Program-made: the position numbers and the translations under genes
Part shown: piece by piece, positions 5,078 through 5,749 of the stretch
Layout: each line of letters opens with the position of its first letter
How positions within the stretch are numbered: the first letter of the stretch is position 1
From: a virus
Taxonomy: Duplodnaviria; Heunggongvirae; Uroviricota; Caudoviricetes
IMG/VR virus record: IMGVR_UViG_2565956721_000002
Reading direction: 5' to 3' (one strand)
DNA: 64,000 bases
Notes under the pieces: model-generated
Database searches by the model: none
Told to the model about the DNA's origin: nothing
The model's input: only the letters and a program-made list of their open reading frames with translations

Positions 5078-5097
5078 TAAATTTATTAGTGTAATAT
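5068..5097 (+). promoter_or_regulatory. overlapping pair of C1 operator-like sites in opposite orientation
   Basis: 5068..5084 ATTGCTCTAATAAATTT is an exact consensus match and overlaps the dmt stop; 5081..5095 reverse-complement ATTACACTAATAAAT. Confidence 0.6.
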
Positions 5098-5258
5098 CGC
5101 CTCAATGAATCGTGATTTATAGAGCGATTTAGCTGTTAGCCGCGACAGGCGCGGCGGTAAGCATGGCTGGGCCTAGTCCTCCCAGACAAACCACCGAGTT
5201 GCCAGGTTGACCATGCGCCTAAGTGGCAACGCCGAAGTGCGTTACGAGCTTCCAGTTT

Positions 5259-5284
5259 GCCCATCTTCGGGTGGGCGTTTTTTT
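5259..5284 (+). terminator. intrinsic terminator
   Basis: GCCCATC-TTCG-GGTGGGC hairpin followed by GTTTTTTT. Confidence 0.6.
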
Positions 5285-5749
5285 CAGGGTTTTCGTCATG
5301 GTTAGCGACTTTGCGGCGGTTTAGAAACTGACCATTAAAGTAAATGCAAACGATGATCTGATGATGGTAGCGGCCTAAGAAGCCAGACGCCACGGGGTAT
5401 GAGTCGTCCCCCGTCAAAAAATCGACCGCAGAGTGTCCCCGTCTGTGTATTAGGGAACGGGGAGGCACAACAGGTAAGGGCGCTGGTGTGATTAACCAGA
5501 TGAACGAGAAGGGGCCATCTGTTGGTCAGCGTCCTTTCCTGTTGCGTCTTCTTTTCAGCGTAACAGCGGTGCTTAACAGCACTTTGGGTACAGTTCCACG
5601 AATTTACGGGTATATCCCGTCATGCTGAAGGCGCTAATCACGCTGGAAGCCAGGGTTATGCATCCCCTGTTACCGAATTGCAGCCAGGGCGCGGTGCGCC
5701 GAAAAGCATACGGAGGTGGAAGCCCTCGCCGGAGACGTACCCGGCAAGT

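Follow-up and report, generated by a model that had tools for sequence, protein, structure and literature searches.

A probable C1-controlled leader of the ban operon in a P1-type phage genome, with a conserved pseudoknotted RNA domain ahead of an early terminator

The present analysis concerns the non-coding region between the DNA methyltransferase gene dmt and the tRNA genes upstream of the helicase gene ban in a viral DNA stretch of 64,000 nucleotides (nt), IMG/VR record IMGVR_UViG_2565956721_000002, which as a whole is called the window below. Over positions 5040-5760 the window shares 99.2% identity with phage P1 (NC_005856) and 99.9% with phage vB_EcoM-813R1; P7, SJ46 and D6 are related to it more distantly. 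On the plus strand dmt (2813..5077), which encodes a bifunctional DNA methyltransferase according to the open reading frame (ORF) list, the Pfam domains MethyltransfD12 and DNA_methylase and the P1 annotation, is followed by a pair of operators for the C1 repressor, the ban promoter, a non-coding leader and an intrinsic terminator. About two thirds of the predicted leader RNA is a conserved pseudoknotted domain, referred to here as the dicF-upstream element (DUE). Behind the terminator lie an RNA resembling transfer-messenger RNA (tmRNA), tRNA genes and ban.

At the homologous positions the P1 RefSeq record carries Obanab (formerly Op72ab), P1ban, a predicted P2ban and a 'dicF-like region', an annotation of the ban locus that we take to be that of Lobocka et al. 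2004, J Bacteriol 186:7032. Judged by this correspondence in sequence, the operators, promoters and small-RNA-like region at 5068-5284 are already annotated in P1, and hence are not new. The same is true of the small-RNA (sRNA) idea, which an initial annotation of the window had raised at this locus, as the P1 annotators had already marked the 'dicF-like region'. That region was annotated with no structure, no transcript and no homology-based boundaries. It corresponds to about 5192-5293 in the window and spans the 3′ half of the DUE plus the terminator, whereas the similarity to the dicF region begins approximately 50 nt upstream of it and excludes DicF itself.

The first operator, Op72a (Oban-a; 5068..5084, plus strand), matches the 17-bp asymmetric C1 consensus ATTGCTCTAATAAATTT with no mismatches, and the dmt stop codon falls within it, the dmt ORF ending at 5077, as the initial annotation had stated. 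The inverted second operator, Op72b (Oban-b; 5079..5095, minus strand), is also present, with two mismatches, but its span had been given as 5081-5095 and was thus 2 nt short at one end. Both sites were found by pattern search and are C1 sites in the P1 and P7 annotations; with an overlap of 6 bp they form a bivalent operator. In the window the consensus is matched 15 times at three or fewer mismatches, versus 0.34 matches expected (44-fold), and none of 100 shuffles reached this count. The other 14 operator-like sites, several of them with 0-1 mismatch, include those at 1546-1562, 15499-15515, 21264-21280, 36926-36942 and 53008-53024. These scattered sites are the expected C1 regulon of a P1-type genome.

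The promoter P1ban (5069..5097, plus strand), transferred from the P1 RefSeq record at 99.2% identity, consists of the -35 element TTGCTC (5069-5074), a 17-nt spacer and the -10 element TAATAT (5092-5097). By this transfer the -35 element lies within Op72a and the -10 element within Op72b. A second promoter, P2ban (5052-5083, plus strand), is predicted in the P1 annotation. The P1 record notes for Obanab that it 'controls expression of ban', and the P7 record carries the same operator annotation and names the tRNAs among the controlled genes. On the strength of these sequences and annotations, C1 is taken to bind at Op72ab over P1ban and to control ban. In the P1 literature of Velleman, Heisig, Lurz and Schuster (1987-1989) C1, together with Lxc/Bof, is said to repress initiation at Pban. 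From the position of the -10 element of P1ban we infer that transcription starts near 5104.

Promoter prediction in 5085-5120 had been proposed in the initial annotation, and there the result is negative: a simple sigma-70 scan gave no promoter in this interval or elsewhere in 4800-8300, the annotated P1ban (-10 at 5092-5097) being too weak for the scan criteria, so that the scan is uninformative for Pban itself. Between 5285 and 8300 the scan found no sigma-70-like site on either strand, versus 2.9 expected from shuffles. Because this interval holds no promoter-like site, the tRNAs and ban would depend on read-through of the terminator. Since Pban drives ban and no other promoter was found in 5285-8300, the short unit appears to be an operon leader or attenuator and therefore not a stand-alone gene. 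Thus, of the C1-controlled sRNA gene proposed initially, the anatomy of promoter, untranslated unit and terminator stands, and a short RNA is reasonable by analogy with DicF; its status as a separate gene does not stand. The promoter-free interval also agrees with one long unit, antisense to plp/upl, that is transcribed from Pban as far as ban and whose first 1.5 kb is mostly untranslated.

The predicted leader RNA (5104..5284, plus strand) is about 181 nt long; it would be produced by termination at the early terminator, as deduced from the promoter and terminator positions, the fold and the analogy with DicF (PMC9438474). It starts with a hairpin (5106..5131, plus strand) which appears in both the minimum-energy and the centroid fold and is kept in P1, P7 and E. 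albertii plasmids. The intrinsic terminator (5259..5284, plus strand), 180 nt past the dmt stop, was found by a terminator scan. It is composed of a 7-bp GC-rich stem (5259-5265/5270-5276) with a UUCG loop, a G and a U7 tract (5278-5284), and the energy of the hairpin 5259-5276 is -12.8 kcal/mol; the hairpin and U-tract reported initially are thereby borne out. The alignment shows the terminator conserved among P1, P7 and D6, with U7 in this window versus U6 in P1. It is preceded by UUU, and UUU, the GC-rich 7-bp hairpin and U7 together have the shape of an Hfq-binding 3′ end. The linker of about 23 nt that parts the DUE from the terminator (5235-5257), GAAGUGCGUUACGAGCUUCCAGUUU, is kept between P1 and P7, has substituted bases and 4 additional nt in the E. 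albertii relative, and is replaced in D6-like elements.

The initial annotation had found no credible ORF over some 170 nt, which is confirmed: ORFs on the plus strand within the unit have only 32-33 codons with TTG or GTG starts, and the reading frame of the tiny ones inside the DUE is not conserved. The minus-strand ORF 5136-5468 has no Pfam match; it overlies the DUE, the terminator and an arm of the tmRNA-like RNA, where substitutions keep the RNA base pairs. Protein coding of 5104-5284 was rejected, given the absence of a Pfam match for the minus-strand ORF and the unconserved plus-strand micro-ORFs. At permissive thresholds, with the window and the MG1655 spacer as queries, Rfam gave no family for 5104-5284 or for the DUE, and the weak matches to nuoG, RyhB and isrB at the unit only reflect the terminator hairpin.

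The DUE occupies 5130..5247 on the plus strand (about 115 nt), where the covariance model R1, made from the alignment of DUE copies, scores 90.2 bits (E ~1e-24). Its general fold comprises P2, P2a, the variable hairpin P3, whose loop usually contains UCCU, P4 of 8-9 bp, and a pseudoknot. In the window, on the plus strand, the consensus fold places P2 at 5140-5144/5150-5154, the 4-bp P2a, which closes the junction, at 5155-5158/5193-5196, P3 with its UCCU-containing loop at 5167-5171/5181-5185, and P4 at 5198-5204/5224-5230. The pseudoknot, formed by 6 bp between the P2a-P3 junction and the P4 loop, is at 5161-5166/5211-5216. An outer closing helix is found in the lambdoid copies only and is lacking in the window; the score of the model is 144 bits in the ydfC-dicF spacer of MG1655 versus 90 bits here. 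Hence the unit is not a simple sRNA made of a seed and a terminator, since two thirds of it is this pseudoknotted domain.

In the model-based alignment of 34 distinct sequences 92.7% of the cells are paired, versus 31-52% with slid partners. Compensatory changes on both sides are present in 14 of the 35 pairs, whereas shuffles give 6.9 and not one of 500 attains 14; the structural covariation in related phages, which had been proposed as a check, is thus found. An earlier MAFFT alignment gives the same picture. In P2a a pair is U-A in P1 and C-G in P7 and the E. albertii plasmid; in the pseudoknot a pair is C-G in P1 and U-A in P7. Three consecutive P4 pairs are changed in the Izhakiella copy with pairing kept, and the P3 stems are entirely different between lineages. 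In stability the constrained consensus fold of the P1 DUE, pseudoknot included, roughly equals the minimum-energy fold. The P7 copy fits the model, though the first pattern scan for the DUE could not retrieve P7. The DUE is a conserved structured RNA domain backed by covariation; it is absent from Rfam and is not described in the literature searched. Its invariant unpaired nucleotides suggest a conserved protein partner.

A sensitive DNA search relates 5140-5234 of the window to a segment of approximately 95 nt in dozens of lambdoid phages, at 75-79% identity. In mEp460 this segment stops 25 nt short of a true DicF (76.7 bits, the score also obtained in MG1655), with dicB downstream; in E. coli K-12 MG1655 it lies in the untranslated ydfC-dicF spacer (segment coordinates 1753-1872), and in phage cdtI it precedes another hairpin plus terminator (segment coordinates 3105-3155). 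Copies gathered by pattern scans of viral and genome collections come from Escherichia, Shigella, Citrobacter, Serratia, Trabulsiella, Erwinia and Izhakiella. The DUE is present in 4242 of 5426 complete E. coli genomes (~78%), K-12 included, in up to seven copies each and never annotated, and 476 of the 5426 carry the complete P1-type unit.

All 127 DicF sites of the viral-contig sample have a DUE upstream. A hairpin with a U-run follows P4 within 20-140 nt in 167 of 169 DUE instances (110 distinct flanks), and within 40-80 nt in 163 of them. At least ten different terminator hairpins occur in this place, among them DicF, several DicF variants and the P1 type; the motif GGCGGUA is common to the DUE and the lambdoid terminators, and the P1 terminator lacks it. 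In a D6-like E. coli plasmid a DUE of the lambdoid type stands at the spot of a clean indel in D6 (D6 segment 2480-2530 versus plasmid 2494-2612), and in D6-like plasmids a different gene, and another hairpin, precede the DUE. Because of the clean indel between D6 and the D6-like plasmid, together with the shared coupling to terminators, we regard the DUE as a discrete module. The 'dicF gene' and the 'dicF-like region' of P1 are thus each a two-part unit, in which the conserved part is the upstream pseudoknotted domain and not DicF.

Several modules behind the DUE resemble DicF, starting with GGCGG..., and receive no Rfam call; they give the impression of DicF-type sRNAs that have diversified as one family and differ in their 5′ segments. 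In the Actinobacillus phage vB_Apl-pPE4 (segment 2585-2760) one DUE is followed by a tandem-duplicated DicF-variant module, each with a terminator, upstream of a kil gene.

The unit of the window was compared with known kinds of RNA. Identity with DicF (Rfam RF00039) was rejected, as 5060-5320 gave no match at E up to 10 (threshold 48 bits). By direct reading, the 5′ single-stranded ftsZ-pairing segment of DicF, UUUCUGGUGAC, is absent from the unit, which contains no ftsZ-complementary sequence, and the linker has no AU-rich RNase E site such as precedes DicF. DicF is made by early Rho-independent termination in its operon and RNase E trimming, and read-through expresses dicB (PMC9438474, PMC5069750). 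The layout of this type is found in the window, where the DUE (5130-5247) is followed by the intrinsic terminator (5259-5284) inside an operon. The dicBF operon (ydfABC-dicF-dicB of Qin and lambdoid prophages) shares with it a homologous DUE with a terminator within tens of nt, and, like the ban operon, is an early operon under repressor control in which the distal genes depend on read-through. However, the repressor is DicA there and C1 in the window, and the DUE lies several hundred nt downstream of the promoter, in a 3′ untranslated region (UTR), in contrast to 26 nt here. We therefore describe the unit as a variant of the DicF-type early-termination unit which keeps only the upstream domain and stands directly under C1. 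Because P1 has neither a DicF-like seed nor an AU-rich cleavage site, the DUE itself would be the functional body of the P1 RNA.

Two further kinds of RNA were considered. The put RNAs of HK022 are likewise folded RNAs; they belong to the early operons of a temperate enterobacterial phage and precede terminators that polymerase has to pass (PMC9378689). Unlike the pseudoknotted, multi-helix DUE, put consists of two stems, with no similarity in sequence or covariance model; model R1 has no match in the whole HK022 genome or in D6, and homology of the DUE to put was rejected on account of the missing HK022 match and the different fold. With riboswitch and attenuator leaders the DUE shares a conserved pseudoknotted domain with invariant junction nucleotides directly before an intrinsic terminator; it differs from riboswitches in that no conserved antiterminator alternative and no Rfam match were found.

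We suggest that the unit as a whole is probably best explained as a promoter-proximal, C1-controlled leader of the ban operon, in which the DUE is joined to partial early termination. The anatomy itself, that is C1 operators, Pban, a non-coding leader and a terminator, we hold with high confidence. By analogy with DicF, it is somewhat better than an even guess that termination releases a short C1-controlled RNA of about 180 nt. A role of the DUE in cis at the following terminator is the leading specific possibility, to which we give tentative preference among such roles, considering it less than even in likelihood; it is favoured because the DUE is constantly paired with a following terminator in read-through operons.

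The proposed sequence of events is as follows. In the repressed state C1 would occupy the bivalent operator Op72ab, which overlaps P1ban, and shut the ban operon. Inactivation of C1 would allow initiation near 5104, and the first 181 nt to be transcribed, all non-coding, would comprise the 5′ hairpin, the DUE of about 115 nt, the 23-nt linker and the terminator with its U7 tract.

At 5284 part of the polymerases would stop, yielding a stable RNA of approximately 180 nt, as in the dicBF operon, while the remaining polymerases would pass on to transcribe the tmRNA-like RNA, the Asn and Thr tRNAs and, last, ban. The DUE would most probably act as the functional body of the short RNA, folding autonomously and using its invariant unpaired nucleotides to bind a conserved host or transcription factor; a seed-pairing sRNA role seems less likely for it than such factor binding.

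Several observations weigh against this explanation or parts of it. D6 keeps the terminator, the tmRNA-like RNA and the tRNAs and has lost the DUE by the clean indel of about 113 nt, so the DUE is not required for that unit. No conserved antiterminator pairing of the DUE with the variable terminators was found by eye in the P1, DicF and cdtI-type units; this speaks against a classical riboswitch mechanism and, together with D6, calls for caution on the role in cis. P1ban agrees with the sigma-70 consensus at only 7 of 12 positions, so that the simple scan misses it. The single-sequence fold of the leader is barely more stable than shuffles (z = -1.7), and the consensus is not recovered from it alone. 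The DUE alignment was seeded by patterns that fix parts of J2/3 and L4, and the invariance of these parts is partly an ascertainment effect. Two published P1vir RNA-seq studies make no mention of the ban leader region, and no transcript evidence was found.

An alternative that is compatible with the leader explanation makes 5259-5284 mainly the terminator of the dmt operon and 5078-5284 the dmt 3′ UTR, the short RNA being derived from processing of the dmt transcript and/or from Pban. From the dmt stop (5077) to 5258 the sequence has no further terminator, and DicF itself is classed as an sRNA derived from the ydfC 3′ UTR, which contains the same DUE. However, the bound C1 and a co-directional promoter sit between dmt and the DUE, and the different upstream gene and hairpin around the DUE in D6-like plasmids show that the link to dmt is not conserved; we consider this origin rather unlikely. 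We give a slightly lower chance, and so call unlikely, a stand-alone, trans-acting, Hfq-dependent sRNA gene, a functional analogue of DicF released on C1 inactivation that pairs with host mRNAs, with the downstream genes served otherwise. The Hfq-type 3′ end (UUU, GC-rich hairpin, U7), the homology of the locus to the dicF locus and the conservation of the linker 5235-5257 between P1 and P7 fit such a gene, and, as weak and indirect support, ban and trnA are over-induced late in P1vir infection of an hfq mutant in published RNA-seq. Against it stand the missing DicF match at E = 10 and the missing ftsZ-complementary sequence, and only about 23 nt are available between DUE and terminator, which moreover are altered in the E. 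albertii relative. The AU-rich RNase E site found before DicF is lacking too, no downstream promoter would serve the tRNAs and ban, and the P1 annotation ties the promoter to ban.

Still less probable, in our view, is a DUE that works as a put-like processive antiterminator, folding while the transcript is being made and binding RNA polymerase so that it passes 5284 and the later Rho-dependent and intrinsic stops over the 3 kb, mostly untranslated, that lead to ban. The position of the DUE suits such a factor, 26 nt after the inferred start and ahead of all terminators in an operon without an internal promoter; in the Qin-type lambdoid hosts of the DUE the corresponding early-left operon contains no gene annotated as N, the invariant unpaired nucleotides suggest a conserved protein partner, and put RNA is a precedent (PMC9378689). 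But in HK022 the DUE model matches nothing, and the two RNAs are built differently, a multi-helix pseudoknot versus two stems; D6, devoid of the DUE, retains the terminator and the downstream genes; the fixed short spacing to the terminator is not needed by a processive factor; and DicF accumulates by termination at the very site which the DUE would suppress. Finally, a hypothetical protein is annotated at 5136-5468 in some phage records, but a protein-coding region on the minus strand, or a chance collection of features, is extremely improbable: the ORF lacks a Pfam match and runs antisense across the DUE, the terminator and the tmRNA-like arm with their pair-preserving substitutions, and the C1-operator matches exceed expectation 44-fold.

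Directly behind the terminator the window carries an unannotated, presumably co-transcribed tmRNA-like RNA without a tRNA-like domain (5287..5749, plus strand), recognised from similar phage DNA, a survey of tags and an antisense match. Positions 5288-5480 are 70-88% identical to unannotated DNA in 258 phage records from unrelated T1-like, N4-like, phiEco32-like and Vi1-like groups, whose hosts include Escherichia, Klebsiella, Salmonella, Serratia, Cronobacter and others; the RNA is found in 660 of the 5426 E. coli genomes. According to the tag survey, the tag frame ANDDLMMVAA lies at 5346-5375 on the plus strand, with TAA at 5376-5378. It reads AAAU|GCA AAC GAU GAU CUG AUG AUG GUA GCG GCC UAA, with GCA as resume codon and no start codon. 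In all 132 instances (30 nucleotide versions, 14 peptides) the frame has exactly 10 codons plus a stop, and the tags begin with AND and end in alanine (proline in one of the 132), never in LAA. Synonymous differences are many, the other frames are closed, and an in-frame UAG stands upstream. Beyond the tag frame (5380-5480) stands a hairpin whose loop, GAGUCG (P1, PD205) or UCCGA (SG01, Menlow, C1), could form pairs with CGAC or UCGG further downstream; this pseudoknot-like pairing, with apparent covariation, was seen by eye.

The Rfam family tmRNA_permuted scores 24-33 bits over the tag part only (threshold 47), and ARAGORN reports no tmRNA at 5287-5749. No tRNA-like domain (acceptor stem, T arm, CCA) was found, T-loop motifs at a consistent distance coming only from true tRNAs. 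Hence the RNA shares with tmRNA (SsrA, including two-piece forms) the context of the resume codon, an AND...A tag with a stop, and the subsequent hairpin or pseudoknot-like elements, but differs in the lack of a tRNA-like domain, the score below the Rfam threshold, the absence of an LAA tag and a 5′ arm antisense to host tmRNA. Phage tmRNAs listed in tmRNA databases are standard forms or forms with a tRNA-like domain only (PMC4131195, PMC11915505) and come from mycobacteriophages and Bacillus phage G (PMC4131195). The literature searched contains no description of a tmRNA-like RNA with an antisense arm.

The 5′ 30-39 nt of the conserved block are the reverse complement of nt 67-105 of E. coli tmRNA, which cover the 3′ strand of pseudoknot 1, the resume codon and codons 1-5. 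In the window this arm is at 5288-5323 (plus strand), assigned from the antisense match and the duplex energies. The predicted duplexes of arm and tmRNA have a median energy of -36.2 kcal/mol, versus -15.9 for the RNA's own tag region and -14.7 for a shuffled target; each of the 51 representative arms beats all 100 shuffles, and all 51 map to the same tmRNA position. BLAST against ssrA found no second antisense arm consistently. From these modelled energies the arm is predicted to pair with host tmRNA. The tmRNA-like RNA might then only block tagging, or might supply its own tag, which is speculation. Synthetic oligonucleotides against tmRNA block it in vitro, in cell-free translation (PMC3384345), and they target the same tag-coding region as the arm. 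In phage C1 a promoter, TTGACA-17-TAGATT, stands just upstream of the arm, so that there the tmRNA-like RNA is an independent gene.

The tmRNA-like RNA is followed on the plus strand by tRNA-Asn (5750-5825) and tRNA-Thr (5828-5903), both identified by ARAGORN, Rfam and the P1 annotation. The DnaB-like helicase gene ban (8260..9630, plus strand; Pfam DnaB and DnaB_C, note in the P1 annotation) begins about 3.2 kb downstream of the Op72ab/Oban operator pair. Between them, at 6832-7876, a gene with an SPFH/Band_7 domain (7049-7876) and a small ORF stand in place of tciA, tciB and tciC of reference P1, an arrangement also seen in RCS47 and some other P1 isolates. The Rfam family STnc100 gives a partial match of 37.8 bits, below threshold, at 6678-6798, and the same family matches the Qin segment directly after dicF (segment coordinates 1947-2087). 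Both flanks of a dicF-type locus are thus present in P1, the approximately 1.4 kb between them being taken up by the terminator, the tmRNA-like RNA, the tRNAs and plp/upl; such split flanks suggest an insertion into an ancestral dicBF-like operon. Phage cdtI, one of the DUE hosts, carries matches to C4 antisense RNA and isrK beside its antirepressor gene (segment 529-717), and this lambdoid phage therefore has an immI-like module of the P1/P7 type.

By itself the finding amounts to a renewed identification of a P1 regulatory region that was already annotated, and is in this sense ordinary. Its value lies in the DUE, a widespread structured RNA found in neither Rfam nor the literature searched, and in an unannotated, putatively tmRNA-directed RNA that the same promoter would have to supply. 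The DUE gives a mutable target for old questions, such as the biogenesis of DicF and the length of the dicBF leader, and P1 is the cleanest system for it, with the DUE 26 nt from a promoter switchable by temperature-sensitive C1 and a minimal 3′ module. As a bolder and, taken as a whole, improbable proposal, Pban may switch on a C1-controlled 'RNA operon', from which two as yet undescribed RNA devices would be supplied early after induction. One would be the DUE, a new cis-acting or protein-binding regulator choosing between short-RNA release and read-through; the other would be the tmRNA-like RNA, held to host tmRNA at the resume-codon region through some 30 bp, where it would block tagging or substitute its own non-LAA tag and so re-program host trans-translation. 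If the tmRNA-like RNA does pair with host tmRNA, it would be the equivalent in nature of the synthetic anti-tmRNA oligonucleotides, and such pairing would be an unrecognised route by which many unrelated phages interfere with ribosome rescue.

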